Assembly: GCA_964630025.1 (NCBI GenBank)
Contig: CAZVRG010000004.1
Coordinates: forward strand, 1-45,657
DNA length: 45,657 nt
Reading direction: 5' to 3'
From: an uncultured Candidatus Saccharibacteria bacterium
Lineage (GTDB): Bacteria > Patescibacteriota > Andersenbacteria > UBA10190 > CAIZMI01
Shown here: positions 1,064 through 20,047 of the stretch, piece after piece
Position numbering within the stretch: the first letter of the stretch is position 1
How the letters are laid out: every line of letters starts with the position of its first letter
Position numbers and translations under genes: made by a program
The notes under the pieces: model-generated
The model's input: the letters and a program-made list of their open reading frames with translations, nothing else
What the model was told of the DNA's origin: nothing
Databases searched by the model: none

Positions 1064-2119
1064 ATGAGCGCGGAAACACTTCTCCAAGATTTTCTCCGTG
1101 ATGTACGCAGTCTGAACGCATCGGATCTGCATCTTTCTGTTGGCCGTTCTCCCATTGTGCGCGTTGACGGAGCACTCCGCGTGCTCGAAGACCGTCATCC
1201 GCTGTCTGCCGAAGACCTTGCACAGATGGTGCAATGCGTCATGGGGATTGATCGCGCGCCGCAGTTTTTCAAGGAACGGCAGGGAATTGATATCGCATAC
1301 GAGCCGTCGCGTGACGGGCTTCGCTTTCGCGTGAATATGTTTTGGAGTCGTGGAGAGCCCGCGCTGGTGTTCCGCGCGATCTCGCGCACCGTTCGGACGT
1401 TGCGCGACCTGTCGCTTCCCGATACCCTGCTCCGATTCACGGAACCAAAAAAAGGTTTTGTGCTTTTTGCTGCCCCTTCCGGTCATGGAAAAACCACCAC
1501 GATGGCGGCGCTCGTCGAATACATCAATCAAACACGTTCCGAGCACATTATTACCATTGAAGATCCCATTGAGTATGTGTACACCGATGCGCGCTCGCTT
1601 GTGCATCAGCGTGAAATCGGCACCGATACGCGTTCCTTCCCCGATGCGATCCGTTCCGCGCTCCGAGAAGACCCGAACATTCTCGTGATCGGAGAAATGC
1701 GCGATCTGGAGACGATTGCCGCGGCGCTCACGGTCGCAGAAACGGGCCATCTGGTATTCGGCACCATTCATACGAACGATGCCGCGCAAACGATTGACCG
1801 TATTCTCGACGCATTTCCCGCGGATCGTCAGTCGGAAGTGCGGGTACAGCTTGCAGGAGCGCTCACCGGCGTTGTGTCGCAGCGTCTTCTTCCGCGGGTG
1901 TCCGGCGGACGCGTGCCCATCGTAGAGATTCTCGTGGCCAATCCGGCGGTACGCAATCTTATTCGGGAAGGGGAAACCGAACAGATTCCCGGACTCATTC
2001 AAACAGGTGCGGACGCAGGAATGGTATCGCTGGAACGCTCCATTGCGGAGCTGCTCCGACGCGGAGAGATCACGCCGGACGCAGCACGGCCCTATGTGTC
2101 TTCGAATGTTCCGTCGTGA
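1064..2119 (+). CDS. pilT: Twitching-motility (pilus retraction) ATPase PilT
   Basis: Walker A APSGHGKTTT, Asp box ITIEDPIEY, Walker B ILVIGEMRD and His box GHLVFGTIHTNDA. The 351-aa size is typical of PilT. Confidence 0.9.
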   Translation: MSAETLLQDFLRDVRSLNASDLHLSVGRSPIVRVDGALRVLEDRHPLSAEDLAQMVQCVMGIDRAPQFFKERQGIDIAYEPSRDGLRFRVNMFWSRGEPALVFRAISRTVRTLRDLSLPDTLLRFTEPKKGFVLFAAPSGHGKTTTMAALVEYINQTRSEHIITIEDPIEYVYTDARSLVHQREIGTDTRSFPDAIRSALREDPNILVIGEMRDLETIAAALTVAETGHLVFGTIHTNDAAQTIDRILDAFPADRQSEVRVQLAGALTGVVSQRLLPRVSGGRVPIVEILVANPAVRNLIREGETEQIPGLIQTGADAGMVSLERSIAELLRRGEITPDAARPYVSSNVPS

Positions 2120-2184
2120 AATTTCACAGATATCGCACTCCCGTGTTGTGCTACACTCACATGGTCACACACATCAACTGACCC

Positions 2185-3393: not shown

Positions 3394-3496
3394 GGCTCGT
3401 GCACATGTGTGGTAAACTTTCCTGTGTGATTCGCCAGCACTGTTCCCATTGCTCCGGAGTAGTTTCTTGTGGAGTATTGAGAGGAGGTGAGCGCAC

Positions 3497-4027
3497 ATGA
3501 ACATTCGTCAAGCTGGGCTACGCGGCGGGTTTACCCCGCACCAGCTCTTCCGTGGGAAAAGTAGTGCGGGATTTACGCTCATCGAGCTTCTCGTGGTCAT
3601 TGCGATCATCGGGATTCTCGCAACGCTCATCTTCATTTCCTTAGGAGCTGCCCGCGCACGGGCGCGTGACACGCGGGTGGTCTCCAACCTCGAACAGGCA
3701 ATGACGGTGTGTATTCTCCGTCAGGATGTGTACGGAGATCATCAGAAATGCGTGAAGACCGATCAAGGCGAAAGTGAATCGCCAGGCGCACTTTCTCGTC
3801 TCGACAAAGACACCGCGCAGATTGACGGCGTTGGTGGAGCAAATGACGGCGGTATTACCCTCGATCCGGGACCGAGTAACAGCAAAATGTGCATGCTGGT
3901 CACGTTGAATGCAAAGAGCGGGAGCAATAATAAGAAGTTTTGCCGCGATGACGGTGGAAACGTCACCTCATCGGTTGGTTCAGCAGATGCAAGCTGCAAC
4001 CTCGGCGTCTGCAACCCGGGGACATAA
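3497..4027 (+). CDS. Type IV pilin (probable major pilin) with a long class III leader
   Basis: Prepilin motif GKSSAG/FTLIELLVVIAIIGILA with Gly-1, Phe+1 and Glu+5. A strong SD GAGGAGGTGA lies at 3481-3490. The C-terminus has Cys residues consistent with a disulfide loop. Confidence 0.85.
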   Translation: MNIRQAGLRGGFTPHQLFRGKSSAGFTLIELLVVIAIIGILATLIFISLGAARARARDTRVVSNLEQAMTVCILRQDVYGDHQKCVKTDQGESESPGALSRLDKDTAQIDGVGGANDGGITLDPGPSNSKMCMLVTLNAKSGSNNKKFCRDDGGNVTSSVGSADASCNLGVCNPGT

Positions 4028-4042
4028 GATCACGATGGATCA

Positions 4043-4834
4043 ATGTGGTCGGTAAGCGCATTGGTGATCGGAGCGATTGTTGGAAGCACGCTTACCACGA
4101 TTATTGAACGGCTCCCTCGGCAGGAATCATTCCTCCGAGGGAGATCGCGTTGCCCGCACTGCGGAACATCCCTGACCGCGCGGGACCTTTTCCCCATCGC
4201 AAGTTTTCTTCTGCTGCGCGGGCGGTGCCGGCACTGCGCTGTTCCCATTCCGCGCTGGCATCTGGCGGTGGAGATCAGTGTGCCGGCGTTGTTTCTTCTG
4301 GCGGTTGTGCTGCTGCCTGGGTCCGCGGTTCCTGATCAGGTTTCCCGCTGGGTGCTGCTCGCGTTGCTTCTCGCGCTCACGGTGATTGATCTGCAGACAT
4401 TTCTGTTGCCGGACGTGCTGGTGCTTGCCATGGCGGGCGTCGGTGTTGTGCGGAGTGTCACGTTGCACATGCCGCCCCTTCCCTCCGCACTTCTTGGAGG
4501 AATTGTTGGTTTAGGCGTGCTGGGGGCGTTTGCGCTGATCCCCTGGCGTCGTCGGTCGGGTGACCGTACCGATGCGCTTCCTGCAACCGCCATGGGACTT
4601 GGGGATGCAAAACTCGCCGGTGCGATGGGCGTTGTTCTCGGCATGCAGGGGCTCATCACGGCACTCTTTGTGGCGTTTGTCGCTGGCGGTGCGGTAGGAA
4701 GCGCACTTCTTCTCACGCGGCGCGCAACCTTTGCGAGCCGCATCCCGTTCGGACCATTCTTGGCGGGCGCAACGATGCTCATTCTCCTGTTTCCCAACCT
4801 TCCGCATCTCTTTTTTGGTCTGTTGGGATTCTGA
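4043..4834 (+). CDS. pilD: Prepilin peptidase / N-methyltransferase PilD (peptidase A24)
   Basis: N-terminal CPHC...CRHC zinc motif, a polytopic membrane profile and the GLGDAKLAGAMG catalytic Asp motif. Confidence 0.9.
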   Translation: MWSVSALVIGAIVGSTLTTIIERLPRQESFLRGRSRCPHCGTSLTARDLFPIASFLLLRGRCRHCAVPIPRWHLAVEISVPALFLLAVVLLPGSAVPDQVSRWVLLALLLALTVIDLQTFLLPDVLVLAMAGVGVVRSVTLHMPPLPSALLGGIVGLGVLGAFALIPWRRRSGDRTDALPATAMGLGDAKLAGAMGVVLGMQGLITALFVAFVAGGAVGSALLLTRRATFASRIPFGPFLAGATMLILLFPNLPHLFFGLLGF

Positions 4835-4835
4835 T

Positions 4836-4938
4836 ACACCCCGTTAGAGACCTTTGAGGATTTTTCGCGCTATCGCGCAGGGAATAGAGATATGAAACCA
4901 GCGTCGGCTTTTTCAGAAGGTTTCTAACGGGGTATACT
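4836..4938. repeat. CCCCGTTAGA-type inverted repeat, copy 1, ending in a TATACT -10 box
   Basis: Left arm ACACCCCGTTAGAGACC and right arm GGTTTCTAACGGGGTATACT, with a 65-nt spacer containing a small CGCG-CTAT-CGCG hairpin. TATACT lies at 4933-4938, 17 nt before ATG 4956. Confidence 0.8.
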
Positions 4939-4955
4939 ACAGAGAAACGGACAGC

Positions 4956-5546
4956 ATGACGCAATTCATAGGGAACAGGGAACAGAGAACAGGACACAGA
5001 GAACGCACGCAACGCGTCCCTGATCCCTGTTCCCTGATCCCTGTTCCTTTTCCCTCGTCGTCCGCTGGCATCACCTTCATTGAAGTGCTGGTCACGGTCT
5101 TCATCGTTGGGCTTATGTCCACCATTCTTCTCGTTGGCGCTGTCGGTGCGCGGAGAAACGCGACGGTCCGGACTGCCGCGCAGCAGGTAGCGGCATTTCT
5201 TCGTGAGACGGGAAACCTTGCGCTGAACGGCGTGAAAGCAGAAGATTGCGACCCAAGCGATTCGCAGTGCTCTGCCTATCGCGTCACGCTCGGTCCATCA
5301 GACACCAAGACCGCGTACATGCGTCAGGCGCTTGGCGGCGGAGAAGAAGTGCGTGTGCCGTTGCCCGTCGGTGCGGTGTTTCCCGTCACGAATCAAGAAG
5401 TGGAATTCGTCTACACCCCCCCAATCCTTTCTGCAACGGCGGCGGAGATTGCCATAACGCATACAACCGGCGCGCCGCGGTGGCTGGTCTGCGTCACCTC
5501 GCTGGGAAGTGTTACCGTACAAACAGGAGAACAGTGCGTGCAATGA
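4956..5546 (+). CDS. Minor pilin / pseudopilin (prepilin-type N-terminal domain)
   Basis: PSSSAG/ITFIEVLVTVFIVGLM with Glu+5. The ~38-aa leader is encoded by heptamer hairpin H1. No in-frame ATG, GTG or TTG lies between the hairpin and the cleavage motif. Confidence 0.75.
   Translation: MTQFIGNREQRTGHRERTQRVPDPCSLIPVPFPSSSAGITFIEVLVTVFIVGLMSTILLVGAVGARRNATVRTAAQQVAAFLRETGNLALNGVKAEDCDPSDSQCSAYRVTLGPSDTKTAYMRQALGGGEEVRVPLPVGAVFPVTNQEVEFVYTPPILSATAAEIAITHTTGAPRWLVCVTSLGSVTVQTGEQCVQ
4971..5047. repeat. Heptamer-arm hairpin H1 (inside the pseudopilin leader)
   Basis: Left arm GGGAACA GGGAACA GAGAACA GGACACA, core GAGAACGCACGCAACGCGTCCC, right arm TGATCCC TGTTCCC TGATCCC TGTTCC. The arms are near-perfectly complementary. 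Confidence 0.85.
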
Positions 5547-6238
5547 CACAAACACCAGTGAACAGGGAACAGGGAACAGGGAACAGGGAACGCACGCAGC
5601 GTGTCCCTCCAGTCTCTGGCCTAAGTAAGGCCTCGTCGTCCGGCTTTACCCTTCTCGGTGTTCTCATTGGCGCGTTGTTCATTGTTCTTGTCTCCACGGG
5701 ACTTGTGTTCACCGCACAGCGCACGGGACGTGTTGCCACCGCAACCAAAGAACGGCTCATTTCGACACTTCTTGCGCGGGAAGGTGTTGAACTTGTGCGC
5801 GCGATTCGCGATAACAACTGGCTCGCGACGCCGCGGTGTCCTGCAGTTGGCGCGTGCACGATTTTTTGGCGTGGGCAAACGAGTGGTCCGGGTGCACTCT
5901 GTAACGGAACGTTTCGCATCGATGCCGACGCGCTTGAACTTCTCCCTGCTTCCGCAGGTAGTGAAGAAACGCGGCTTGCACTCGATGGCACAGCATACCG
6001 TCATGGCAGCGGCACGCCAACGACATACCGGCGTTGGGTCACTATTGAATCGCCGGAGGAAGGATGCGGAACACCCTCGATCTTCTCCCTCGGATCCATT
6101 CCCGCTCCGCAACCGCCACAGCCGCTGACGGTGCGTGTGGTTGTGGCATGGGACGACAACCCCGATGCTTCCTGTGCGCCAGGCCGTCAGTGTGTTGAAT
6201 TACGAGAAGATCTTCACCCGTGGATGAATTTCCGATGA
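5543..6238 (+). CDS. Minor pilin / pseudopilin-like protein
   Basis: KASSSG/FTLLGVLIGALFIVLV, with no Glu+5. ATG 5543 overlaps the upstream TGA (ATGA), so it was preferred over the 5246 ORF extension, which overlaps the upstream gene out of frame. The leader is encoded by hairpin H2. Confidence 0.7.
   Translation: MTQTPVNREQGTGNRERTQRVPPVSGLSKASSSGFTLLGVLIGALFIVLVSTGLVFTAQRTGRVATATKERLISTLLAREGVELVRAIRDNNWLATPRCPAVGACTIFWRGQTSGPGALCNGTFRIDADALELLPASAGSEETRLALDGTAYRHGSGTPTTYRRWVTIESPEEGCGTPSIFSLGSIPAPQPPQPLTVRVVVAWDDNPDASCAPGRQCVELREDLHPWMNFR
5558..5620. repeat. Heptamer-arm element H2 (degenerate right arm)
   Basis: GTGAACA followed by four GGGAACA units (the last truncated), then core GCACGCAGCGTGTCCC. 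The right arm TCCAGTCTCTGG is only weakly complementary. Confidence 0.7.
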
Positions 6239-6861
6239 ACATACGGATACGAGGGATCAGAGAACAGGGGACAGTGAACAGAGAACGCACCCGACGCGTC
6301 CCTGTCCTCTGTGCTCTGCCCCCTGTCCCCGCGTCGTCCGGCTTTACCTTCATTGAAGCGATTGTTTCTGTTGCCATCTTTCTTGTGCTTATCGGTACGG
6401 TGGCGGGAATTTTTTCCACGTTCTCGCGCCAGCAGAAGCAGGGCATTACGCAGGCAACGCTTCTTGGGGAAGCGCAGGCCGCCATCGAAATCTTGGAACG
6501 GGAAGTACGGACAGGGTTCTCCAATACATTTTCCGGTGCTGGCGCCGCGTTCAGCTTTCGCAACCAAAATAACGTTCTCGTCACGTATGAACTCGCCGAT
6601 GGGCGCCTGATGCGGCGCGCTGTTCCTCCAGATCAAGCAACCCCGGTCACGCCGGCGACTGTGGAGATACGGTCGCTCGAATTTGTGACACGCACGCCAA
6701 CCATCGATCTTGGCGCAGCGCCCCAAGTGCCCATTCTCACCGGAGAACAAGGCCGCGTCACTGTCCGCATGCGCATGTGCCCCACAGGCATTGATACCGA
6801 TCAGCGATGCCTGCAGGTACAGACAACCTTAACGTCGCGCCAATATGCACCCGCACTCTAA
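6235..6861 (+). CDS. Minor pilin / pseudopilin
   Basis: PASSG/FTFIEAIVSVAIFLVLIG with Glu+5. ATG 6235 overlaps the upstream TGA; the alternative start is GTG 6220. The leader is encoded by hairpin H3. Confidence 0.7.
   Translation: MNIRIRGIREQGTVNRERTRRVPVLCALPPVPASSGFTFIEAIVSVAIFLVLIGTVAGIFSTFSRQQKQGITQATLLGEAQAAIEILEREVRTGFSNTFSGAGAAFSFRNQNNVLVTYELADGRLMRRAVPPDQATPVTPATVEIRSLEFVTRTPTIDLGAAPQVPILTGEQGRVTVRMRMCPTGIDTDQRCLQVQTTLTSRQYAPAL
6253..6330. repeat. Heptamer-arm hairpin H3
   Basis: Left arm GGGATCA GAGAACA GGGGACA GTGAACA GAGAAC, core GCACCCGACGCGTCC, right arm CTGTCCT CTGTGCT CTGCCCC CTGTCCCC. Confidence 0.8.
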
Positions 6862-7312
6862 GCGAGAACAGCGCATCACGCACACCTCGTCATCACGCGG
6901 TGATACATCGATTCTTCTTATTTCTCTGTTGCTGATCGTTCTTGTGCTTGGCGCAACGGCACTGACGGTCCTTTCTATAGTGAATCTTCGCGGAGCAGGA
7001 AATGTTGCCGAAAGCTCTCAAGCACTCTATGCCGCTGACACCGGCGTCGAACGCGGATTGTCACTGTACTGGTGGAGCAATCCGTTATCCCCAACATGTA
7101 CGCAGGAAGATAATGTTCCGGTGGGAGACGCCGCAACATACCAACTCACCGTTCGGTCGGATACTGATTCTTGCCCCACATTGCTGGATTTGCAAGGCGG
7201 CGTGCGCGCCCTGTGTGTAGAAGCAATCGGGAAAGTGCGTGATGGCGAGGTACGACGGCGTGTGACCAACGATACAAACCCCACAGGTCTTCTGAATCCC
7301 TGCGGTCGGTAG
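6845..7312 (+). CDS. PilX-like / minor-pilin-like protein with an N-terminal hydrophobic helix
   Basis: ILLISLLLIVLVLGATALTVL followed by ALYAADTGVERGL, reminiscent of PilX N-terminal domains. It overlaps the upstream gene by 17 nt and is last in the pilin operon. Confidence 0.55.
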   Translation: MHPHSKREQRITHTSSSRGDTSILLISLLLIVLVLGATALTVLSIVNLRGAGNVAESSQALYAADTGVERGLSLYWWSNPLSPTCTQEDNVPVGDAATYQLTVRSDTDSCPTLLDLQGGVRALCVEAIGKVRDGEVRRRVTNDTNPTGLLNPCGR

Positions 7313-9596: not shown

Positions 9597-9893
9597 ATGG
9601 TTCACTCCGATAGAACACTGGTGCCGCGCATTGCCGATCTTGCGCGTCTTGCGTTGACAGTGGAAGAAGAAAAACGTCTTGCAAAAGAATTCGAGGATAT
9701 TCTTTCCTACGTCAGTCAGGTACAAGAAGTTGACGCGTCAGAAGAACCACTCACCACAACCATCAGCGGCGTGCAGCATGTGCTTCGCAATGATGTGGCT
9801 GCCTCCTCCTCGCTCACAGAAGAGCTGTTGGCATGTGCTCCGGATGTGGAAAAACGTTCGGTGCGTGTTCCGCCGATTCTTTCTGCGTCATGA
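9597..9893 (+). CDS. gatC: Asp/Glu-tRNA amidotransferase subunit C
   Basis: 98 aa with IADLARLALTVEEEKRLAKEFEDILSYV, typical of GatC. Its stop overlaps the gatA start (ATGA). Confidence 0.85.
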   Translation: MVHSDRTLVPRIADLARLALTVEEEKRLAKEFEDILSYVSQVQEVDASEEPLTTTISGVQHVLRNDVAASSSLTEELLACAPDVEKRSVRVPPILSAS

Positions 9894-11320
9894 CCGCCTC
9901 GATTCGTGACCTTCATGAGCGTCTTCGCCGCGGGGAGACGACGGCGGAGAAACTTCTCGATGCCGCGCTCGTCGCCATACGGAAGCAGGATCAAACACTG
10001 CACAGTTTTCTTCATGTCGCCGAGGACTCGGCGCGCGCAGCTGCACAGCGCGTCGATCGCGCATTGCAGTCAGGAACGGAAGAGCTGTCCGTCCTCGCCG
10101 GCATACCCTGCGCGATCAAAGACATGATTTGCGTGGCAGGCCTTCCCGCTACGGCAGCGTCCCACATTCTGGAAGGATTTGTTCCTCCATATGACGCAAC
10201 GGTGATCCAGCGCCTCAAAGACCATGGCGCGGTGATTGTGGGGAAGACCAATCTGGACGAGTTCGCGATGGGTTCGAGCACGGAACATTCCGCGTTCGGT
10301 CCCACGCGCAACCCGCTCGATACAAAACGCGTGCCTGGCGGTTCATCCGGCGGGTCGGCCGCCGCGGTGGCAGCAGGATTTGTCCCCTATGCGCTCGGAA
10401 CAGATACCGGCGGATCGATTCGTCAGCCCAGCAGTTTTTGCGGCATTGTGGGGTTGAAACCCACCTACGGGCGCGTGAGCCGTTCCGGCGTGATCGCACT
10501 CGCCAGTTCCTTTGATCAGGTGGGCCCATTCGCGCGCACCGTCGAAGATGCCGCCATTGTCTATGAAGCAATTGCCGGGGAAGATCCCAAAGACGGAACC
10601 ACGCTGCGCGGCCCGGCGCCAACAGTGCTTCCTGCGCTCACAGAAGGCGTCGAAGGATTACGCATTGGCGTTCCGGAAGAGTATTTCGCCGAAGGCGTAG
10701 ATACAGGCGTTGCGCAGACAGTCCGGAAAGCCATCGGTGCTCTTGCCGGACTCGGTGCCGAAGTGGTTGATGTGTCGTTGCCGCTCACAGGAGTCGCGCT
10801 TGCGGTATACTACATGCTCATGGATTCGGAGGCGTCCACGAATCTCGCTCGCTATGACGGCGTGCGTTTTGGGCAGCGCGTGAAGTCCAAGACTCTTGAG
10901 GAGGTATATCGGAAGAGTCGCGGCGCGGGTTTTGGCGCGGAAGTGAAGCGACGCATTCTTCTGGGGACATTTGCGCTCTCTACGGGCTATGCAGATCAGT
11001 ATTACCGCAAAGCGGCGGCGGTGAGACGCGCAATCGCGAACGAATATGCGAAGGCATTTAAGACCGTTGACGTGCTGGTGTCTCCAGCCGCTCCCGAAGT
11101 GGCGTTCCGTCTCGGAGAGAAAGTAGCCGACCCGTTGCGTATGTATGCGTCGGATGCCTTGTCGGTACCCGCAAACGTTGCGGGCATTCCCGGACTTGTG
11201 GTGCCTTGCGGAACGGTGAACACGCTTCCCGTTGGCGTGCAAGTGCTTGCACCGCTGGGAAGAGAAGATCTGTTGTTTCGCGTTGGTGCCGCGTATGAGC
11301 GTGCGCGGGAACGCGCATGA
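9890..11320 (+). CDS. gatA: Asp/Glu-tRNA amidotransferase subunit A
   Basis: Amidase signature GGSSGGSAAAVA and TDTGGSIRQPSSFCG. ATG 9890 overlaps the gatC stop. Confidence 0.95.
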   Translation: MTASIRDLHERLRRGETTAEKLLDAALVAIRKQDQTLHSFLHVAEDSARAAAQRVDRALQSGTEELSVLAGIPCAIKDMICVAGLPATAASHILEGFVPPYDATVIQRLKDHGAVIVGKTNLDEFAMGSSTEHSAFGPTRNPLDTKRVPGGSSGGSAAAVAAGFVPYALGTDTGGSIRQPSSFCGIVGLKPTYGRVSRSGVIALASSFDQVGPFARTVEDAAIVYEAIAGEDPKDGTTLRGPAPTVLPALTEGVEGLRIGVPEEYFAEGVDTGVAQTVRKAIGALAGLGAEVVDVSLPLTGVALAVYYMLMDSEASTNLARYDGVRFGQRVKSKTLEEVYRKSRGAGFGAEVKRRILLGTFALSTGYADQYYRKAAAVRRAIANEYAKAFKTVDVLVSPAAPEVAFRLGEKVADPLRMYASDALSVPANVAGIPGLVVPCGTVNTLPVGVQVLAPLGREDLLFRVGAAYERARERA

Positions 11321-12789
11321 GCCTTCCCGATTCCATGCGCCGTTGGAAAGAATTGAGTGACACGTTTTTTCTCGCGGCACTCTGCGTATCTGTTGTCGCC
11401 GTGACGGGGTCTGTGCTCACGTTTGCGTTGTTTATGCAGCGCGCGGAAGTAAGCCGAGCGCAGGAGGCAGAGCCCCCTCCGGGTCCACCTCCGCCCGGAG
11501 ATCCACCGCCTCCCCCCGACGCTCCCCCTGTCGAACCGCCCGGTCCGCCTCCACCAGGACCGCCCCCCGGACCGCCTCCCGCGCCTCCTCCTGGACCGCC
11601 GGCACCCCCGCCACCCCCGAAACCGCCGCCAGCGCCTCCTCCACCGGGTCCCGTTCCTCCGCCTGTGCCACCCCCCGGTGGCGGGCCCGCACCCGTACCG
11701 CCTCCAGGCGGCGAGCCACCTGCTGTTGTTCCGCCAACACCCACGTCTCTGATGCAAAGGACTGTATCCCCAGAACCGATGACGCCCATCCAGCAGCCCG
11801 TATCAAGGTTCTCTTCTCCAGCGCAGTATCTTGGTTCTGCAGTGACTGTCATCGCAACAATGAGCGCCGTGGTGACGGGAGTGCTTGCCGCCGTTGCTCT
11901 TCCGTCGGGACTCTCCAGCATACTGCGTTCCTTCTTTCCATTTCTTGCGACACACCGCCGTCGCGCACGCTGGGGGCGGGTCGTGGAAGAAAAGACAAAC
12001 CTTCCTGTTGCAGGTGCCGTGATTACTATTCTTGATGTGTCCGGAAAGCCAAAGGACACCATCATCACACGGAGTGATGGCACGTTTGCCATGGTGCTTC
12101 CCCGTGGCACCTATCGGCTCTCGGTGCAGCATGCCGGATCTCTGTTCGCGTCCGCGCCGCGTGATGTGCTGCTGTTCCCTGAAGAGCAGCTGTACACGGG
12201 TGGCGTTATCACCGTCGAAGAGCAAGAGAAAGTCTTGCCGGACACGCCGCTCGTTCTTGCGATGACGCCCACAGGCGTTCGTCATCAAACATTCCGTGAA
12301 CGTGCGCACCCATTTCTGGAAGGCATGCGTGTGTTCCATGCGCACATCGCGATGCCGCTGCTGCTCACCGCGGCCGCAATCAATTCGTTGCTGCTCCTGA
12401 TCGAACCGAGCCCGCTGCTGGTTGCATACGAAGTTCTCTATGGCGCATTGCTCACGTTTGAACTTCTTCTTTCACGTGTGACGCGCCGCGCGGTCGGACG
12501 TGTTCGCGACGCGATCGGAAAGCACCCTGTGCCGCTTGCCATTGTCCGCTTGTTTGATACAGCAACGCAGCGCGTGGTCGCCACGCGCGTCACTTCGCCG
12601 CGAGGAAGTTACCTGCTGATGCCGCCGCCAGGTCGGTATCGCATCGCGGTCAGTCATCCCGCCCACGTGCCGTACACCAGCGATCCGCTTGCTATCCGCG
12701 GCGGGAGGACGGGGCTTGTGCGTCTCGTTGCGGATCTTGTTTGCTCTCCAAGCGCCGGCGACGTCGCGGGACAAACGCAGGGCATCTAG
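11317..12789 (+). CDS. Proline-rich membrane protein with two carboxypeptidase-regulatory-like domains (paralog P1)
   Basis: N-terminal TM (FFLAALCVSVVAVTGSVL) followed by ~90 aa of polyproline. The motifs WGRVVEEKTNLPVAGAVITILD...DGTFAMVLPRGTYRLSV and GRVRDAIGKHPVPLAIVRLFD...GRYRIAV match the CarboxypepD_reg pattern. ATG overlaps the gatA TGA. Confidence 0.7.
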   Translation: MSLPDSMRRWKELSDTFFLAALCVSVVAVTGSVLTFALFMQRAEVSRAQEAEPPPGPPPPGDPPPPPDAPPVEPPGPPPPGPPPGPPPAPPPGPPAPPPPPKPPPAPPPPGPVPPPVPPPGGGPAPVPPPGGEPPAVVPPTPTSLMQRTVSPEPMTPIQQPVSRFSSPAQYLGSAVTVIATMSAVVTGVLAAVALPSGLSSILRSFFPFLATHRRRARWGRVVEEKTNLPVAGAVITILDVSGKPKDTIITRSDGTFAMVLPRGTYRLSVQHAGSLFASAPRDVLLFPEEQLYTGGVITVEEQEKVLPDTPLVLAMTPTGVRHQTFRERAHPFLEGMRVFHAHIAMPLLLTAAAINSLLLLIEPSPLLVAYEVLYGALLTFELLLSRVTRRAVGRVRDAIGKHPVPLAIVRLFDTATQRVVATRVTSPRGSYLLMPPPGRYRIAVSHPAHVPYTSDPLAIRGGRTGLVRLVADLVCSPSAGDVAGQTQGI

Positions 12790-12842
12790 CACCATCTCAA
12801 ACGATCGTCATTGCGAGAGGAGAGCACGCATGACGGTTTTCC
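12786..12842 (+). terminator. CCATCTCAAA + GTCATTGCGAG-type hairpin after P1
   Basis: CGTCATTGCG-AGAGGAGAG-CACGCATGACG hairpin followed by GTTTT. The preceding CTAGCACCATCTCAAAC recurs inverted at 15404-15424. Confidence 0.5.
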
Positions 12843-12923
12843 ACAGACACCGGAAGTGATCTGCTATGCTATGAAGTATCCGACACAACACACAGCATAT
12901 GCCGATCTCTTTGGCAGTAACCT

Positions 12924-15311
12924 ATGGTCTTCGTGTCTAAGTGGCGCGACGCGAGCGATGCGTTTTTTCTTGCTGTCCTTCTGATCAGCGGTGTTTCCGT
13001 TGCCGGCGCTGTCTTAAGCTTGGCGCGGTTTGCGCAGGAATATGGTCCCGTTGTTGCGCAGGATCTTGAAGAGCCTGTTCCCCCACCTGGCCCGGCTCCA
13101 GAACCACCTCCGCCTGACCCACCGCCTCCGCCGCCTGGAACCGAACTAGCCCCCCCGGGTGGGGATCCTCCGCCCGCACCGGGCGGCGGGCCTGCTCCAG
13201 CTCCCGCACCTCCGCCAACGGGTGGTACTCCCCCAGCAGGTGGCACACCGCCCGCTCCGCCTCCGCGAGGGGGGCCAGGACCAGCGCCACAACCGGCGCC
13301 ACCCCCGCCAGTTGGCGTGCCGCCCGGCGTGGACGAAATTGAGCCCGCACCAGGTGAAACGGTCTCCCCAGTACCGACAAATGGTGTGTTTCCACCCGCC
13401 GTGCAGCCTGCTCCTCCGGGCGGAGGAGAGCCGGTGTCTGGTCACACGCTGCCGTGGTGGGGCGTGTTCTGGCATCCGGGCGGTGGCGGATTTATCCAGA
13501 TCCTTCCGTGGCAGCAGATTCTCCAAAAACCCATCACGTGGGTATGGATCTTTTTGTGGATTGCGATTTTCGTGTGGCTCTGGACAATTGTGCAGGCCAT
13601 CTATTGGTTCCCGGGATTTTTCTGGATTCTGTTCGGGTTCCACTCGTTCATTTGGTACTGGTATTGGCTGTGGACGTGGTTCTGGGGTTTCATTCGACCA
13701 CAACCGATCACTGTAGGAATTGGACCCGGTCCAGGACCCGGGCCATGGCCGGGTCCTGGACCACAACCTGCGCCTGGCCCCTGGCCGGGTCCTGGGCCGC
13801 AGCCCGGTCCACAACCCGGTCCCGGACCAACTCCGGGGCCTATGCCGGGCCCTCAACCTGGGCCCGCTCCCGGGCCTGGTCCGGGCCCCGGTCCGCAACC
13901 AGGTCCAACTCCTGGTCCGGGTCCTACCCCGCAACCTGGACCCATGCCTGGGCCGCAACCAGGTCCCAGCCCCGGTCCCCAGCCGGGTCCAATGCCAGGG
14001 CCACAGCCCGGGCCTCCCCCAGGCCCAATTCCTGGTCCGCAACCTGGGCCGACGCCCAGTCCAACTCCTGGTCCTATCCCGGGTCCCCAGCCGACGCCTG
14101 GCCCGTGGCCGGGCCCTGGCCCACAACCTGCGCCTGGCCCGTGGCCGGGCCCTGGGCCGCAGCCGGCGCCTACACCCGGTCCGCAACCTGGCCCCGGACC
14201 CATTGCTGGTCCGCCACCAATTTCCGGACCAGGCGGAGGCTCGCCATCTGGTCCGGCTCCCGATCCCGTGTCACCGGTTGAGGAGGGTATCGGAAGACTT
14301 CTGGCCAGATTGCCGTCACGTGCGGGAAGAATTGCCGCGGAGAGCGTTGCGCGCGGAGAGCTTCCTATTCCTGCATTAAGCGGACAGAGAGCGGCGGAAG
14401 CTCCGTCGCTCACAGAAGTGATGATGGCGTCTGCCGATTCTCGGCGTCTGACGGGTTTTTCCGCACTAGGCATTCTTGCCACACATCGATACCGATCGAA
14501 GTGGGGGCGCGTGATTGATGCCAAGAATGGGCTTCCTGTGCAAGGGGCAGTTGTGACGCTTCTGGATGCGCAGGGAAAACCGCGCCAAAACATTCGTACA
14601 AAAGCAGATGGCAATTTTGCGTTTCTTGTCCCTCCTGGCCGCTATCTTCTGAATGTGGTGCGTCCACACTATGTGATGGAAACGCAGCCCAAGTCGCCCG
14701 CGCTCTTTCCTGACGAAATCTTGTATACAGGAGCGCCCTTCGCCGTCGAGCCGTCACCCGATGGTCGGGAAACGCTCACGCCGCCGGTGGTGATCACCAT
14801 GAAATCTACAAAAAAAGGCGCGCAGGGCGTGTCTGTGCGTCCGGCCGTGCATCGGGTCAGCAATGCCGCGCGTGCACTGCATGCGCACGTGGCGCTTCCG
14901 ATCCTGTTATTGAGTGCAGGATTTAACACCTTTATGCTTCTTCTGCAGCCCACGCCGTTTCTTGTTGCCGCAGAAGTGCTTTACGGCGTCTTGCTGTCCA
15001 TGGAATTGTTGCTTTCCCGCGTCTTCCGCCGCGCGATCGGGCGTTTGCGTGATGCCGTGACACGCAATCCGGTTTCCCTTGCGATTCTTCGGCTCATGGA
15101 TGCGCGCACGGGACGCATTGTCAACACGTATGTGTCCACAGCGGGTGGGTCGTTTCTCTTCCTTTCTCGCCCCGGAGCCTACCGTCTCCTATCGGCACAT
15201 CCGAAATACCAACCGCATGATGAGCGGATTGCCATTCGCGGCGGATCGCCCGGGCTCGGAAGAGTAACGGTCCGCCTGCAGCCACGGGGGAAAGTGGTCG
15301 CGGCAGTCTAA
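12924..15311 (+). CDS. Proline-rich, Trp-rich membrane protein with a (PGPX)n repeat and two carboxypeptidase-regulatory-like domains (paralog P2)
   Basis: The N-terminus SKWRDASDAFFLAVLLISGV is homologous to P1. The C-terminal half is collinear with P1 (WGRVIDAKNGLPVQGAVVTLLD...GRYLLNV; GRLRDAVTRNPVSLAILRLMD...GAYRLLS). A unique W-rich block and a PGPX array are inserted between them. Confidence 0.7.
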   Translation: MVFVSKWRDASDAFFLAVLLISGVSVAGAVLSLARFAQEYGPVVAQDLEEPVPPPGPAPEPPPPDPPPPPPGTELAPPGGDPPPAPGGGPAPAPAPPPTGGTPPAGGTPPAPPPRGGPGPAPQPAPPPPVGVPPGVDEIEPAPGETVSPVPTNGVFPPAVQPAPPGGGEPVSGHTLPWWGVFWHPGGGGFIQILPWQQILQKPITWVWIFLWIAIFVWLWTIVQAIYWFPGFFWILFGFHSFIWYWYWLWTWFWGFIRPQPITVGIGPGPGPGPWPGPGPQPAPGPWPGPGPQPGPQPGPGPTPGPMPGPQPGPAPGPGPGPGPQPGPTPGPGPTPQPGPMPGPQPGPSPGPQPGPMPGPQPGPPPGPIPGPQPGPTPSPTPGPIPGPQPTPGPWPGPGPQPAPGPWPGPGPQPAPTPGPQPGPGPIAGPPPISGPGGGSPSGPAPDPVSPVEEGIGRLLARLPSRAGRIAAESVARGELPIPALSGQRAAEAPSLTEVMMASADSRRLTGFSALGILATHRYRSKWGRVIDAKNGLPVQGAVVTLLDAQGKPRQNIRTKADGNFAFLVPPGRYLLNVVRPHYVMETQPKSPALFPDEILYTGAPFAVEPSPDGRETLTPPVVITMKSTKKGAQGVSVRPAVHRVSNAARALHAHVALPILLLSAGFNTFMLLLQPTPFLVAAEVLYGVLLSMELLLSRVFRRAIGRLRDAVTRNPVSLAILRLMDARTGRIVNTYVSTAGGSFLFLSRPGAYRLLSAHPKYQPHDERIAIRGGSPGLGRVTVRLQPRGKVVAAV
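13720..14240 (+). repeat. Coding tandem repeat with 12-nt period, encoding (P-G-P-X)n
   Basis: ~43 tetrapeptide units (PGPQ/PGPT/PGPM/PGPW...). A ~62-nt block at 13741-13803 recurs nearly identically at 14101-14163, exactly 360 nt downstream. Confidence 0.9.
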
Positions 15312-15443: not shown

Positions 15444-17039
15444 CTACAGAAGGCTCGACAGCAGACTCTGCGCGGTCATATGCGCGGGTTTTGGCAGTCC
15501 GAGAATGTCGAGCGCTGTGGGACCCACATCGGCAAGAATGCCAATCGGTGTGCTTAGAACCTGAAAGAGAATGTCATCGTCTTTTGGCGTGGTGTGTTGA
15601 GTATGTGCGGCAACGTAGAGCAGGACCACCGGATTCGCGGAATGATCGGTTGTTCCTTCTCCGGTTTGTAGATTCTTCATTTCCTCGGCATTGCCGTGAT
15701 CGCAGGTGAGCAGCACTGCACCACCAGCCGCAAGCGCAGCCTGGACGACGCGGGGAATTTGCGTGTCGAGAAACCGGAGTCCTTCCACTGTCGCGTCAAA
15801 TTTTCCCGTGTGGCTGATCATGTCGGGATTCGCGTAGTTCATCACGATGAAGTCATACTTTCCTTTGCCGGTTTCCTGTACCACATGATCGGTGATCGCC
15901 TCCGCGCTCATGCGCGGCGTTTCGCTGTAGTCTTTCACGTTGGGAGAGGGCACAAGAACGCGATCTTCGTTCGGGAAGGGCAGCTCGCGCCCGCTATTAA
16001 AGTAATACGTCACGTGCGCGTATTTCTCGGTTTCGGCGACACGGAGCTGTCGCAATCCATGCTCGGCAAGAACACGACCAACGGGCATATCCATCCATTG
16101 CTCGGGAAAGGCAACCGTGACCGGCAGTCCTTTTTCGTACTCGGCCATCGTGACAAATGCAAGGTCGGTGAATTGGACGGTGGGGAATGATGAAAACCCT
16201 TTCGTCACGAATGCGTGCGTGAGCTGCCGCGCGCGGTCCGGGCGGAAATTGAAGAACACGACCGCATCTCCGTCCCGCACGGGACGCACCGATCCGCCGT
16301 CGGTGATCACGCATGCGGGAGCAGTTTCATCCGTTGTTTTCCGCTCATACGCCGCCTGCAGAGCCTCTTGCCACGAGCGGTAGGGCGTTCCGGTGCCCGC
16401 AGTCAGAAGATCGTATGCCGCGCGGGTGCGGTCCCAATGCGTATTTCGATCCATGGCATAGAAACGCCCAATGAGCGTGGCGATACGTCCCGCGCCCGTT
16501 TGGCGCATGGTGTTTTCCATTTCCGTGAGATACTGTCCCGCGCTGACCGGCGGCGTGTCGCGACCATCAAGAAATGCATGGATGAGCGTTTGTTTGCCAA
16601 CGCCTTGCTCTGCCGCAAATGTAAGAAGCGCCTGCAGATGCTGCAGATGACTGTGGACCCCGCCAGGGGATGCGCACCCCATCAGGTGTAGAACGGACCC
16701 AGGGCGCTCCTTCACATGGGCAACCGCTTCCTGAAATGCCACGTTCTGAAAGAAGCTTCCGTCTTGAATCGCAAGCGTAATTTGCGGCAACGGCTGATAG
16801 ATCACGCGGCCGGAGCCGATATTTTTGTGTCCCACTTCCGAGTTGCCGACCTCTCCCCACGGAAGACCGACTTCAATGCCTGCAGCACGAATCGCAGCGC
16901 ACGGATAGGAACGAAGATAGTTCTGCAGATTCGTCATCTGTGCCGCGAGAACGGCGTTTCCATCCTCGATAAACGAAATCCCGAACCCATCGAGAATCAT
17001 CAGCACAAGCGGCCGTGGGCGTGGTGAAGGTGCCTCCAT
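15444..17039 (-). CDS. gpmI: 2,3-bisphosphoglycerate-independent phosphoglycerate mutase
   Basis: LMILDGFG, the catalytic Ser motif NSEVGHKNIGSGR, and CDHGNAE. The start was set to ATG 17039 because the longer ORF reads through the antisense strand of a tRNA gene. Confidence 0.9.
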   Translation of the reverse strand: MEAPSPRPRPLVLMILDGFGISFIEDGNAVLAAQMTNLQNYLRSYPCAAIRAAGIEVGLPWGEVGNSEVGHKNIGSGRVIYQPLPQITLAIQDGSFFQNVAFQEAVAHVKERPGSVLHLMGCASPGGVHSHLQHLQALLTFAAEQGVGKQTLIHAFLDGRDTPPVSAGQYLTEMENTMRQTGAGRIATLIGRFYAMDRNTHWDRTRAAYDLLTAGTGTPYRSWQEALQAAYERKTTDETAPACVITDGGSVRPVRDGDAVVFFNFRPDRARQLTHAFVTKGFSSFPTVQFTDLAFVTMAEYEKGLPVTVAFPEQWMDMPVGRVLAEHGLRQLRVAETEKYAHVTYYFNSGRELPFPNEDRVLVPSPNVKDYSETPRMSAEAITDHVVQETGKGKYDFIVMNYANPDMISHTGKFDATVEGLRFLDTQIPRVVQAALAAGGAVLLTCDHGNAEEMKNLQTGEGTTDHSANPVVLLYVAAHTQHTTPKDDDILFQVLSTPIGILADVGPTALDILGLPKPAHMTAQSLLSSLL

Positions 17040-17140
17040 TCCCTGTAGTATAGCGGCTCTCCGAGAAATACCTTGCTTTCGTCGAGGAAATACGCTATAG
17101 TTGCGCTGTTCAAGGCAGGGTCTTGAACGCGATATGTTGT

Positions 17141-17215
17141 CGCCGGGTGGAGAAGTGGTATCTCGCCAGGCCCATAACCTGGAGATCGCCGGTTCAAATC
17201 CGGCCCCGGCTACCA
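17141..17215 (+). tRNA. tRNA-Met (CAT), initiator type
   Basis: A manual cloverleaf fold gives acceptor CGCCGGG/CCCGGCT with a 1:72 mismatch, A11:U24, anticodon stem CCAGG/CCTGG, loop CCCATAA, T-arm GCCGG-TTCAAAT-CCGGC, and an encoded CCA. Confidence 0.85.
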
Positions 17216-17229
17216 GCATACCGAGAGAC

Positions 17230-17253
17230 CCGCAAAGCGCGGGCTTTTCGGTA
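17230..17253 (+). terminator. Short hairpin plus T-run after the initiator tRNA
   Basis: CCCGC-AAAGC-GCGGG followed by CTTTTCGG. Confidence 0.4.
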
Positions 17254-17357
17254 TTCCTGTTGGGCGGGATTTGAAAGATAGTTTCAAAAGCACATTGACC
17301 GGAAGATCGATTTGGTATAGAGTCCCGCAGGGAACTGTACCGTGAAAGGAGCATACT

Positions 17358-17654
17358 ATGTCGATGTCTCTTGATTTAGGAACGAAGCCGGCTGGACTAG
17401 AAGTTAAAACATACACGCATACGCTTGGATCGCTGGGCAAGTCCGTTCATCTTGGCGCGTATGAGATCTCGTTGGAAGACTTTCTCGTGGCTGCTGGATA
17501 CGTTCTTACCAATACGGACCTCGCCCCCAACGATCCCCGTCTCCAGTTTGTGAAGTATGTTCAGTCGATGCGGGTAGTCGAAGGCCACAATCGGGGCGGG
17601 GAACGGCTTGAACCCACGGTGCCGGTCCTTCTTCCGGAGCATATCGCCCGTTAA
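17358..17654 (+). CDS. Hypothetical small protein (98 aa)
   Basis: SD AAAGGAG lies 7 nt upstream of the ATG, and an intrinsic terminator follows directly. No motif was recognised. Confidence 0.6.
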   Translation: MSMSLDLGTKPAGLEVKTYTHTLGSLGKSVHLGAYEISLEDFLVAAGYVLTNTDLAPNDPRLQFVKYVQSMRVVEGHNRGGERLEPTVPVLLPEHIAR

Positions 17655-17673
17655 CGACGACGTGCATAGCTAG

Positions 17674-17712
17674 CCCCTTGCAGAATGCTTTCTGCGCGGG
17701 GTTTTTCTTTTT
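17674..17712 (+). terminator. Rho-independent terminator
   Basis: CCCCTTGCAGAA-TGCT-TTCTGCGCGGGG followed by TTTTTCTTTTT. Confidence 0.8.
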
Positions 17713-17823
17713 CAGGCAACGTGTTGAAGCAACAGGGGAAAATCGGTATTCTGTTGTTTTGTACCGGTGAATCCGCGTCGCTGCGCAGACAAAACAATAT
17801 GTATGCGCTACGCTTTGCTCCGC

Positions 17824-17898
17824 GCCGGTGTAGCTCAGTGGCAGAGCGATGGACTCATAAGCCATAGGTCGCAGGTTCGATCCCTGCCGCCGGCACCA
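17824..17898 (+). tRNA. tRNA with CAT anticodon, elongator type (Met, or Ile2 if lysidine-modified)
   Basis: Acceptor GCCGGTG/CGCCGGC, D-arm GCTC-AGTGGCA-GAGC, loop CTCATAA, T-arm GCAGG-TTCGATC-CCTGC, and an encoded CCA. Confidence 0.85.
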
Positions 17899-17958
17899 CT
17901 TCACAAACGTTTGTTCGCACCATATGCTGTGCAGGCGAACATTTTCATGTTGCGACTC

Positions 17959-18036
17959 GGCCCCGTGGTGTAGCCTGGTAAACATAGCACCTTGTCAAGG
18001 TGAAGATCGCCGGTTCAAATCCGGTCGGGGCCGCCA
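17959..18036 (+). tRNA. tRNA-Asp (GTC)
   Basis: Acceptor GGCCCCG/CGGGGCC, anticodon loop TTGTCAA, T-arm GCCGG-TTCAAAT-CCGGT, discriminator G, and an encoded CCA. Confidence 0.85.
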
Positions 18037-18433: not shown

Positions 18434-20047
18434 TTATTCGTGAACGCGGAAAATCATCGCGCGACTGATTTTCCCGTTCTGCTGCGGGAATGAAAAGGTC
18501 TGTGCCACACGAATATGGTCGAGAAAACGCGTGTCTGACAGCACAGGAAATACCTCACTCTCCGTGCCGCGGATAACGATGTATCGCGCGTCCCATTTTT
18601 GGAGCTCCTCCCACTGCTCGCTGCTGTCGGGCGTGTTGAGATGCGTCTCCGCAAAGACCGCGCGTCCCTCGTCTTTTTCGCCGAACAATGCGAGCACGAT
18701 GCTGGAGCGGTGCTCAAAGGCAATTGTTCCAGGGAGTGTTTTCGCTGCTTGGATTGCTTGGTAGTATGCGTAATCCGTTCCGAGATTTTTTTGATAGACT
18801 TCGCGAGCCTCTGCCGCGGTATGCCGCGTCCAGGACCCCGTCGCAAGAAGGATGAGCGCGAGTCCCAGTACTGCGGGGATTGTCTGTTTCAATACTGGCC
18901 ATCGGCTCAACATGCGACGAAACACTCTTCCGGATTCCTCAACACCAGCGGCGACAAGCAAAAAGAACAGCGGATAGAGGACAATGAGGAAGCGTTGTCG
19001 CACGCCCCACCACGCGATCGGCACCGCGAGCGTGAGGAAGAGCAGAACAAGCGGGAGAGAAACCGACACGCGTTTGCGCAGCAGAAAGATGATGCCTGCG
19101 AGCAGGAATAGACTGGGAAGTTCTTTCGGGTCTGTGACCAGCGAGCGCAGGCGCGCGGGCCATGTTGTGGCCGCGAGCGTCGCAACGTCATGCAGAACAC
19201 GGCGCGGTTCTTTCCATACGCGATCAAAACCCACGCTCTTCCAGAGTTCTCCGTAGTTGCGGAAAAACTCCTTGGCGCTCGTGACACCGAATGGCGTTGC
19301 TTCGGCGTCGGCAAAATATTCTACTGGCAAGAGCGGCCTCCCGACGGAGGTAAACAGGATCAGGAACGGCAGCCAACATGCGACCAACGCAAGGAGTGCC
19401 GGGAGCAGGAGGCGTCGGGGTTTCCAGAAGAACGCCGCGAGAAATGGGAAGAGCACGACGAGAAATGCACCCTCAAATCGTGTCAGTGATGTGAGCGCAA
19501 ACAGCGCTCCCGTGAGGACTGCTCCTCGGCGCGACCGCGTGTGAAGAAAGGCAAGGAGTGCGCCCAGCATCAGGGCAATAAACGTCGTGTCGGCATAGCC
19601 GCGTACGGATTGAAAGAGAAATGGCGCCACGGCCTGAAACGGCGCGAGGCCGATCACCAATGCAAACGATGAGATTCCCATCGTTCGCCCGAGCGCGTAT
19701 ACCAGGGCAACAGACACAAGGGAAGCGCCCAGAGCAATCACGAATGCTGCGTGTTCCCAGTCAACAAACGTATGCGCCAGGGCAATGAGCATCGGATACA
19801 TCGGTAACCGTTTCTCTGCAACCGGATAGGACCCTTTGAGGAGTTCTTGCGCAATGAGAATGAAGTTGTATGTATCGCCGCCGGGGAAGGCTTTCCACCA
19901 CTGGAGGAACGCGATGCGATGGACAACGGTAAGGACGAGAAGCGCGACGAGACCCCAGTGTGCACGGAAAAAATTGACAACTCGTGCGATCGGATCTGCG
20001 AAACGGGAGTGAAGAAAAGAATCGTTATGCACAGGAGAACGTATCAC
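18434..20047 (-). CDS. Polytopic membrane glycosyltransferase-like protein (ArnT/PMT_2, GT39/GT83-like)
   Basis: 537 aa with ~11 hydrophobic segments in the first ~400 aa and a soluble C-terminal domain. The N-terminal loop FPGGDTYNFILIAQ resembles this family. The call rests on architecture only. Confidence 0.55.
   Translation of the reverse strand: MIRSPVHNDSFLHSRFADPIARVVNFFRAHWGLVALLVLTVVHRIAFLQWWKAFPGGDTYNFILIAQELLKGSYPVAEKRLPMYPMLIALAHTFVDWEHAAFVIALGASLVSVALVYALGRTMGISSFALVIGLAPFQAVAPFLFQSVRGYADTTFIALMLGALLAFLHTRSRRGAVLTGALFALTSLTRFEGAFLVVLFPFLAAFFWKPRRLLLPALLALVACWLPFLILFTSVGRPLLPVEYFADAEATPFGVTSAKEFFRNYGELWKSVGFDRVWKEPRRVLHDVATLAATTWPARLRSLVTDPKELPSLFLLAGIIFLLRKRVSVSLPLVLLFLTLAVPIAWWGVRQRFLIVLYPLFFLLVAAGVEESGRVFRRMLSRWPVLKQTIPAVLGLALILLATGSWTRHTAAEAREVYQKNLGTDYAYYQAIQAAKTLPGTIAFEHRSSIVLALFGEKDEGRAVFAETHLNTPDSSEQWEELQKWDARYIVIRGTESEVFPVLSDTRFLDHIRVAQTFSFPQQNGKISRAMIFRVHE

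Follow-up and report, generated by a model that had tools for sequence, protein, structure and literature searches.

Gram-positive wall-spanning proteins combine a specialised signal peptide such as YSIRK with a proline-rich wall-spanning region and a C-terminal anchor made of an LPXTG motif and a transmembrane (TM) helix, and proteins of the TonB/TolA type carry an N-terminal TM anchor followed by a rigid Pro-rich periplasmic spacer. Patescibacteria (Candidate Phyla Radiation, CPR) probably live in attachment to host cells, and next to nothing is known about the way in which their numerous large surface proteins are anchored and deployed. Here, we analyzed two tandem genes, P1 (11317-12789, plus strand, 490 amino acids (aa)) and P2 (12924-15311, plus strand, 795 aa), located on a 45,657-nucleotide stretch of Patescibacteria-type DNA from an uncultured Candidatus Saccharibacteria bacterium (contig CAZVRG010000004.1 of assembly GCA_964630025.1; hereafter, the window is this whole stretch). 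On balance, we favour the view that P1 and P2 are stalk-only members of a large family of Patescibacteria envelope proteins, which is defined by a C-terminal membrane module. This module of about 320 aa consists of a first helix (TM-A), an Arg-rich clamp ("RRRxPWGRV"), a first beta-sandwich, a hairpin of two helices (TM-B/TM-C), a second basic clamp and a second sandwich.

Compared with the Gram-positive wall proteins, the family shows the same general layout of an exported N-terminal part, a membrane-proximal Pro-rich segment and, at the C-terminus, a hydrophobic anchor with basic residues behind it, and here too variable "heads" are set on a constant tail. However, the tail is of a different kind: instead of a single TM helix and a short tail, the module spans about 320 aa with three TM helices and two sandwiches predicted to be cytoplasmic, and P1 and P2 have neither an LPXTG sorting motif nor a head domain. 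A classification as sortase LPXTG proteins was rejected, since P1 and P2 end in a folded sandwich, where such proteins have the motif, one TM helix and a short basic tail; NLPVAG, the one LPxxG string present, is located within the first strand of sandwich 1 and belongs to the domain consensus. The resemblance to TonB/TolA consists of an N-terminal TM helix and a subsequent Pro-rich tract of about 100 residues, which likely forms an extended polyproline II (PPII) rod across the envelope. In P1 and P2, however, the chain is predicted to re-enter the membrane after the Pro tract, and Pfam revealed no TolA C-terminal domain. TonB_C did not match P1 or P2 at E<=1 (Pfam), and no ExbBD-type or TolQR partner gene was present among the window open reading frames (ORFs) scanned. 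With respect to the folded domains, both sandwiches match PF13620, a type of domain known from carboxypeptidase D, NOMO, SdrD B and CnaB, and superpose on the transthyretin-like domain of carboxypeptidase D and on CnaB2. In the known proteins, these domains are extracytoplasmic and either soluble or arranged in tandem arrays; in the module, by contrast, each sandwich comes after a TM helix and a basic WG clamp, and its predicted location is the cytoplasm. Two further candidates were discarded. Models of NOMO/EMC7-type proteins scored 13.7-15.5 bits against cut-offs of about 27, with the match to NOMO2 in the Protein Data Bank (PDB) restricted to the domain level, and, unlike type IV pilins or pseudopilins, P1 and P2 have neither a match to N_methyl (PF07963 / TIGR02532) at E<=1 nor a Gly at position -1.

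The first-pass annotation of this locus described P1 and P2 as tandem paralogous, proline-rich membrane proteins. We can confirm this description: both ORFs are intact, their C-terminal ~290 aa share 44% identity (BLASTP, E 4e-72), their N-terminal 46 aa form a separate BLASTP alignment with 46% identity (E 1e-7), and composition and hydropathy agree. The carboxypeptidase-regulatory-like sandwiches were likewise recovered by Pfam, with CarboxypepD_reg (PF13620) matching two stretches per protein at whole-protein scores of 72.8 bits for P1 and 65.7 bits for P2 (gathering cut-off 32.3 bits). P1 starts with the motif WKELSDTFFLAAL and the helix TM1 (residues 10-40, 11344-11436; hydropathy 2.24), as seen in an alignment of seven N-termini and in an AlphaFold2 helix covering residues 5-51. 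The polyproline tract (residues 52-150, 11470-11766) is predicted to be extracytoplasmic and is modelled as coil; at its densest (residues 41-120), it contains 20 to 30 Pro per 40-aa block, and overlapping PPP motifs occur 21 times. Hydropathy, AlphaFold2 and the family alignment then place TM-A (169-195), a short interfacial helix (199-206) and the basic clamp HRRRARWG (213-220) at 11821-11976, followed by sandwich 1 (11974-12270), a CarboxypepD_reg or transthyretin-like domain supported by PF13620, AlphaFold2 and Foldseek. Hydropathy, AlphaFold2 and the family alignment also define the TM-B/TM-C hairpin (residues 342-385, 12340-12471) with its 5-residue loop EPSPL, and sandwich 2 (12520-12741), preceded by the clamp SRVTRRAVGRVRD, is supported by PF13620, AlphaFold2 and alignment. 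Both sandwiches are predicted to be cytoplasmic.

P2, encoded on the same strand, has a comparable N-terminal motif and TM1 (residues 7-37), which is followed by a first Pro/Gly/Ala tract (50-170; together 12942-13433; composition, hydropathy and N-terminal alignment). Next come a Trp-rich hydrophobic block (residues 176-258, 13449-13697) and a (PGPxPG)n tract of about 175 residues (266-440, 13719-14243), which is visible in the DNA as tandem repeats with periods of 12 to 36. The conserved part (14502-15287; PF13620, BLASTP and profile) comprises sandwich 1 (527-625), the hairpin (655-698) and sandwich 2 (715-788). In both proteins, each sandwich is directly preceded by a basic clamp with WG or G, and the short hairpin loop contains Pro. 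P1 has the clamps HRRRARWGRV and SRVTRRAVGRVRD with the loop EPSPL; the corresponding elements of P2 are HRYRSKWGRV and SRVFRRAIGRLRD, with the hairpin loop QPTPF. Of the five parts that the first-pass annotation regarded as shared, the N-terminal motif with its helix, the Pro tract, the sandwiches and the hairpin are indeed common to both proteins, but the "second hydrophobic region" is not homologous. In P1, it is TM-A, an Ala/Thr/Val-rich helix directly before sandwich 1; P2 and two of the three copies at a related locus (L005_B and L005_C) lack TM-A, and only these three proteins possess the Trp-rich block, which is located far upstream of sandwich 1. Judged by its composition and hydropathy, the block of P2 probably forms one to three membrane helices that replace the lost TM-A. 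When 5.8 billion proteins were searched with this block (ITWVWIFLWIAIFVWLWTI ... WYWYWLWTWFW), no homologue was detected other than these paralogues.

The C-terminal part of P1 aligns end to end with the module profile (profile positions 55-392, residues 152-488 of 490) at 494 bits, and P2 reaches 405 bits. A single-sequence search against 5.8 billion clusters yielded only 14 relatives; the two with a source name are generically named proteins from metagenome-assembled genomes (MAGs) of a Parcubacteria-group bacterium and an unclassified "bacterium". With a core profile searched against 1.84 billion representatives, 1199 proteins were found at E<1e-30. Among the best 150 protein clusters, about 110 contain the whole ~320-residue core in one stretch, while the other high scorers are giant CarboxypepD_reg arrays. 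A scan of genome contigs with a pattern from within the generic sandwich returned only the known Parcubacteria contig and unrelated CarboxypepD_reg proteins, and a word-indexed search with a diverse module alignment, limited to 8000 candidates, added few members and no informative names. The database relatives annotated as "carboxypeptidase regulatory-like domain-containing protein" or "Fibronectin type III protein" in Parcubacteria/Patescibacteria MAGs (e.g. Gr01-1014_38, VMFP01000002.1), are true homologues that carry the module at 40-71% identity; the closest of them share the gatA-iPGM locus discussed below. Their names are generic and no function is assigned to them, and most are mis-started by gene callers. 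All family members with an organism name are, going by these records, from Patescibacteria/Parcubacteria. Comparing P1, P2 and seven relatives with NCBIfam yielded no match to the module that reached a cut-off, and a full-text literature search returned no description of it. The CPR Pam pili treated in a preprint from 2026 (doi 10.64898/2026.03.03.709456) involve different proteins that are unrelated to the module.

For a closer examination, we considered 46 large members with lengths of 590-2163 aa. In all of them (46/46), the module is placed at the C-terminus, ending a median of 11 residues before the end of the protein. The N-terminal parts vary and consist of domains of extracellular type: fn3 domains are present in 19/46, and Pur_ac_phosph_N, PKD, Big_5, FG-GAP, PEGA, WxLIP and LDL-B domains also occur. 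A hydrophobic, signal-like N-terminal segment was found in 33/42 members starting with Met, often together with an AxA site. The typical TM count is the signal peptide plus one plus two. Among other members, P0013 and P0019 combine a signal peptide (cleavable in P0013) with acidic double-disulfide repeats. Many of the large relatives carry a Pro-rich linker just before TM-A, in the position of the polyproline stalk, although the enrichment is slight (9.5% Pro versus 5.8% elsewhere; higher in 26/42). From this comparison, the tail is the constant and the exported head the variable part of the family, and P1 and P2 are, by the same comparison, "headless" members, of which only a polyproline stalk is predicted to be exported. 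The number of members per genome differs as well, with several in L017 and L019, and only P1 and P2 in the window (profile search). One distant family member, P0014 (metagenome protein of the European Nucleotide Archive, 526 aa), shows a prepilin-type N-terminus fused to the same module (TIGR02532, 22.8 bits versus a cut-off of 16.3), which hints that some members may be processed by prepilin peptidase.

Alignment of 63 modules revealed a strong conservation of the clamps (W219 52/63, G220 63/63, G394 59/63, D398 58/63) and of parts of the hairpin (loop Pro 51/63, Gly352 56/63, N356 33/63, E372 32/63). Position 382 switches between E and K/R, and an intramembrane carboxylate is nowhere invariant. 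The module is an internal duplication of a unit consisting of a TM helix, the motif (R/K)3-4 x(P)WGxV and a transthyretin-like CarboxypepD_reg sandwich. Altogether, this architecture represents a new and widespread variant of membrane-anchored surface proteins, with a function that we infer. Found at the end of at least about 110 different clusters of proteins that bear adhesin-like ectodomains, the module provides a concrete, searchable marker of the CPR "surfaceome".

The predicted structure supports this division into elements. The AlphaFold2 model of the P1 core (mean predicted local distance difference test (pLDDT) 77.8) shows two sandwiches separated by two long helices; from its N-terminal end, the TM-A helix is followed by the short interfacial helix and a sandwich of seven to eight strands (pLDDT 85-93), then by helices of 37 and 23 residues and lastly by the second sandwich. 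The full-length model (predicted template modelling score 0.35) consists of the long helix 5-51, an unstructured Pro tract and helices 326-362 and 366-385, and is no more informative on the core than the core model. Comparison with the PDB using Foldseek identified single transthyretin-like/CnaB domains only, namely those of carboxypeptidase D, CnaB2, SdrD and pilins of Gram-positive bacteria. For the carboxypeptidase D transthyretin-like domain and CnaB2, the target TM-scores were 0.76-0.87. Since the TM-scores normalised to the query remain <=0.26, no solved structure resembles the whole module. A PDB sequence search again gave generic sandwich matches only (NOMO2, SdrD, carboxypeptidase D).

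Which side of the membrane the sandwiches face was deduced from two arguments. According to the positive-inside rule, positively charged flanks face the cytoplasm. Averaged over the 63 aligned modules, the net charge is +4.2 for the 12 residues after TM-A, +2.6 for the 18 residues before TM-B, about 0 for the 5-residue TM-B/TM-C loop and +2.2 after TM-C; taken with the rule, this pattern puts both sandwiches into the cytoplasm and the hairpin loop outside. The second, independent argument is based on the large members, in which a cleavable signal peptide and hundreds of residues of fn3/PKD domains are followed by a single TM helix before sandwich 1, so that the sandwiches are expected inside. 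For P1, it is thus highly probable that the sandwiches lie inside and the Pro tract outside, the opposite of the arrangement suggested in the first-pass annotation. The prediction goes halfway towards a wholly cytoplasmic location, which the first-pass annotation named as a finding that would speak against it: the folded domains are placed inside and the stalk outside. Where TM-A has been lost, in the P2-type paralogues, the Trp-rich block has been gained further upstream, which is consistent with the need for one membrane crossing.

Based on this topology, we propose the following organization. The N-terminal part would be exported, in P1 and P2 by means of the conserved signal-anchor, which is maybe cleaved at a conserved A-Q, and TM-A would bring the chain back into the cytoplasm. 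Sandwich 1, the tight hairpin and sandwich 2 would then form a three-helix base, with both domains held to the inner leaflet by the Arg/Lys clamps. In the large relatives, this base would bear fn3, PKD, FG-GAP or Ig ectodomains, whereas in P1 and P2 it would carry about 100-120 residues of polyproline. At ~3.1 Å per residue, such a PPII rod would measure ~30 nm, or about half of this as a loop if TM1 is kept, and could cross the wall or an S-layer as a spacer, strut or brush. The cytoplasmic sandwiches would most likely serve as a pull-out-resistant anchor (a "toggle bolt") or as a docking platform. The analysis directly shows the architecture, the family membership, the C-terminal placement of the module, the asymmetry of charge and the fold, whereas the topology, the role and the cleavage of the N-terminal helix are predictions. 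We give the role of an anchor or strut an even chance. Some aspects speak against this proposal. The topology is derived from the positive-inside rule and from TM counting by a home-made hydropathy scan, and domains of the CarboxypepD_reg type usually lie outside the cytoplasm. The hydrophobicity of TM-A is only moderate (Kyte-Doolittle values of 1.7-2.5), and this helix is absent from the P2-type paralogues. The enrichment of Pro before TM-A in the large members is modest, and the sandwiches are strongly conserved (FPxExLYxG, H..Y.PY), more than a plain anchor needs. This conservation hints at a partner or an activity beyond anchoring.

One alternative that takes up this point is that the module is an active transmembrane device, acting in outside-in signalling or energy transduction in the manner of TonB/TolA or integrins, or a sorting tag read by a dedicated machine, with partner-binding cytoplasmic sandwiches. 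Its motifs are strongly conserved, including the (near-)invariant WG and D398, the hairpin contains the polar residues N356 and E372 in about half of the modules, FG-GAP and fn3 ectodomains recall integrin-like receptors, and the layout of P1 and P2, with an N-terminal TM helix and a Pro-rich spacer, is TonB-like. However, the lack of an invariant intramembrane carboxylate, together with the exchange of E for K/R at position 382, argues against an active proton-coupled role. Furthermore, Pfam and NCBIfam scans found no TonB_C, kinase, GGDEF or other output domain, and a conserved partner gene is missing from 11 neighbourhoods, with the exception of the convergent iPGM gene. Overall, we consider this alternative possible, though distinctly less probable than the anchor. 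Equally tentative is a broader idea, according to which the tail would constitute a previously unrecognised, Patescibacteria-wide system for anchoring or sorting surface proteins, its two cytoplasmic transthyretin-like domains docking onto an intracellular partner such as the cytoskeleton, a component of signalling or a machine for secretion or placement. If true, hundreds of adhesin-like ectodomains, together with the "whiskers" formed by P1 and P2, would be positioned or regulated from inside, in functional analogy to sortase/exosortase tags or integrin tails and built from other parts.

The first-pass annotation recognised P1 and P2 as envelope or membrane proteins with a polyproline stalk and without a recognisable enzymatic domain, which agrees with our results, and it suggested an extended stalk by which the Ig-like sandwiches are presented, or anchored, at the cell surface. 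In this version, polyproline would lift both sandwiches outwards for attachment, and only the TM-B/TM-C hairpin would dip into the membrane. In its favour, folds of the CarboxypepD_reg, CnaB and SdrD-B kind characterise surface adhesins and pilins, TM-A has weak hydrophobicity and is missing from P2, and a pilus locus is located close by. Nevertheless, we regard surface display of the sandwiches as improbable: it would put about +9 net K/R outside and none inside, the uncharged 5-residue hairpin loop is typical of an outside-facing turn, and the fn3/PKD ectodomains of the large members are already outside when the chain reaches the hydrophobic helix before sandwich 1. The suggested relevance to the envelope or to attachment persists in another form, as relatives bear adhesin-like ectodomains on the same base.

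In automatic gene calls, P1 begins at M155 and is 336 aa long, and most homologues likewise begin past the Pro tract; as a consequence of such mis-starts, the N-terminal TM helix and the stalk of most members are absent from public protein databases. Seven N-termini from four genomes share the motif W[KR][ED]xS[DH][AT]F[FL][LI], a helix of ~24 residues and, ~8-10 residues later, an A-Q pair (residues 48-49 in P1). This A-Q is a possible, although uncertain, signal peptidase I site at which the N-terminal helix would be cleaved. The locus L001 of the Parcubacteria MAG Gr01-1014_38 contains a 475-aa ORF that begins with MNRSDPVHTWREASDAFFLAVLL and includes 30 consecutive prolines. In L005, from a closer relative, three tandem copies of 494, 631 and 727 aa are present. 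The first of these, L005_A, is the orthologue of P1 with 71% identity and conservation from the first Met, and L005_C is the orthologue of P2 with 82% identity over the C-terminal 290 aa; the duplication leading to P1 and P2 is therefore older than the split of these organisms. In addition, the GenBank annotation of P0005 covers the full length. Altogether, the long ORFs of P1 and P2 appear to be real, with a full-length frame conserved across seven genes.

These observations also bear on a further explanation, namely that the N-terminal helix and polyproline remain untranslated, the products are cores of ~336 aa and the long ORFs are by-products of GC- and CCN-rich sequence. This would agree with the starts chosen by the gene callers, and proline runs of up to 30 residues (L001) should stall ribosomes. 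However, motif and TM1 are conserved at the protein level and stay in frame in the seven genes despite differing Pro tracts, P0005 is annotated in full, and the large relatives also have exported N-terminal parts. A start at M155 would leave the N-terminal side of TM-A without an export signal; such an arrangement is still possible, yet unneeded, and we judge this explanation to be very unlikely. The comparison corrects systematic gene-start errors that polyproline tracts cause, and the analysis also yields a testable hypothesis of membrane anchoring.

The role of elongation factor P (EF-P) in ribosome stalling at proline runs is established knowledge. P1 with its many PPP motifs and its orthologue with the 30-Pro run are natural probes of EF-P dependence in a minimal genome. 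An EF-P gene is located directly upstream of a family member in L017 (7376-7933) and a few kb away from one in L004 (12663-13223), a proximity that is suggestive given the extreme polyproline of some members.

As a next step, we compared the genomic context. The window carries a type IV pilus cluster, ligA, gatC, gatA, P1, P2 and a convergent iPGM gene, representing a housekeeping environment. The pilus locus (1064-7312, plus strand; Pfam) encodes an ATPase, a PilC-like protein, a pilin, a prepilin peptidase and minor pilins; as stated in the first-pass annotation, it lies about 4 kb upstream. Its gene order is kept in L001 and L006, and L005 has the last two pilus genes before the contig ends. 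For P1 and P2, the locus is syntenic context. The window gene order is also found in four loci, L001 (one copy), L005 (three copies), L006 and L007. Between one and three family copies are present per syntenic locus examined, and the Trp-rich P2-type paralogue occurs only in the window and L005. A scan for promoters and terminators gave no signal higher than background. The iPGM gene (15444-17354, minus strand; Pfam iPGM_N and Metalloenzyme, synteny) is convergent with P2. It is convergent to and abuts a family member in the window, L001, L004, L005, L006, L007, L016 and probably L020, and the 3' ends overlap by 8 to 93 nucleotides (nt) in L004, L006 and L016. In L017, it is ~5 kb away from the family member, and L018 and L019 have neither gatCA nor iPGM as neighbour. 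In the loci compared, iPGM is thus the most conserved neighbour and marks what looks like one orthologue group.

Upstream of P1, gatC (9597-9893; Pfam GatC 54.7 bits) and gatA (ending at 11320; Amidase 500 bits) are encoded on the plus strand (9597-11320). The junction GCGCATGAGCC confirms the previously noted overlap between the P1 ATG (11317-11319) and the gatA TGA (11318-11320). The odd partnership read from it did not withstand the synteny comparison. By that comparison, the coupling is lineage-local synteny, seen in the window and L005 only, and we rejected P1 and P2 as components of the GatCAB operon, since in the other loci the coupling is missing or broken up and gatB is not linked to the genes. 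A functional tie to the Glu-tRNA(Gln) amidotransferase, for which the ATGA overlap in the window and L005 and the presence of gatCA upstream in five loci might be quoted, is largely refuted by gaps of 148 nt in L001 and 125 nt in L007, by a GT87-like gene in between in L006, by the absence of gatCA near the members in L004, L016, L017, L018 and L019, and by the distance of 21 kb to gatB.

The gene inserted in L006 (5631-7997) between gatA and the family member encodes a membrane protein of 788 aa that weakly matches GT87 (mannosyltransferase-like). In the window, two tRNA-Met genes and one tRNA-Asp gene are located at 17141-18036 (plus strand). The listed iPGM ORF is over-extended at its 5' end: the first tRNA-Met gene lies inside this spurious extension, and the real iPGM start is therefore expected downstream, near MEAPSPRPRPLVLMILDG. 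Further along (18434-20047, minus strand), a 537-aa polytopic membrane protein without a Pfam or NCBIfam match is encoded, which has, by eye only, the look of a GT-C-type glycosyltransferase. Conserved counterparts of 539 aa in L001 and 537 aa in L005 occupy the corresponding position. Finally, a 377-aa single-chain PheRS-like protein (24377-25510, plus strand) combines a class II core with a fused FDX-ACB domain and has no adjoining pheT. In NCBIfam, it scored 224.5 bits with pheS_mito and 224.2 bits with "PheS-related mystery ligase SrmL", both below cut-off, and among PDB entries it matched human mitochondrial PheRS best (E 3e-57).

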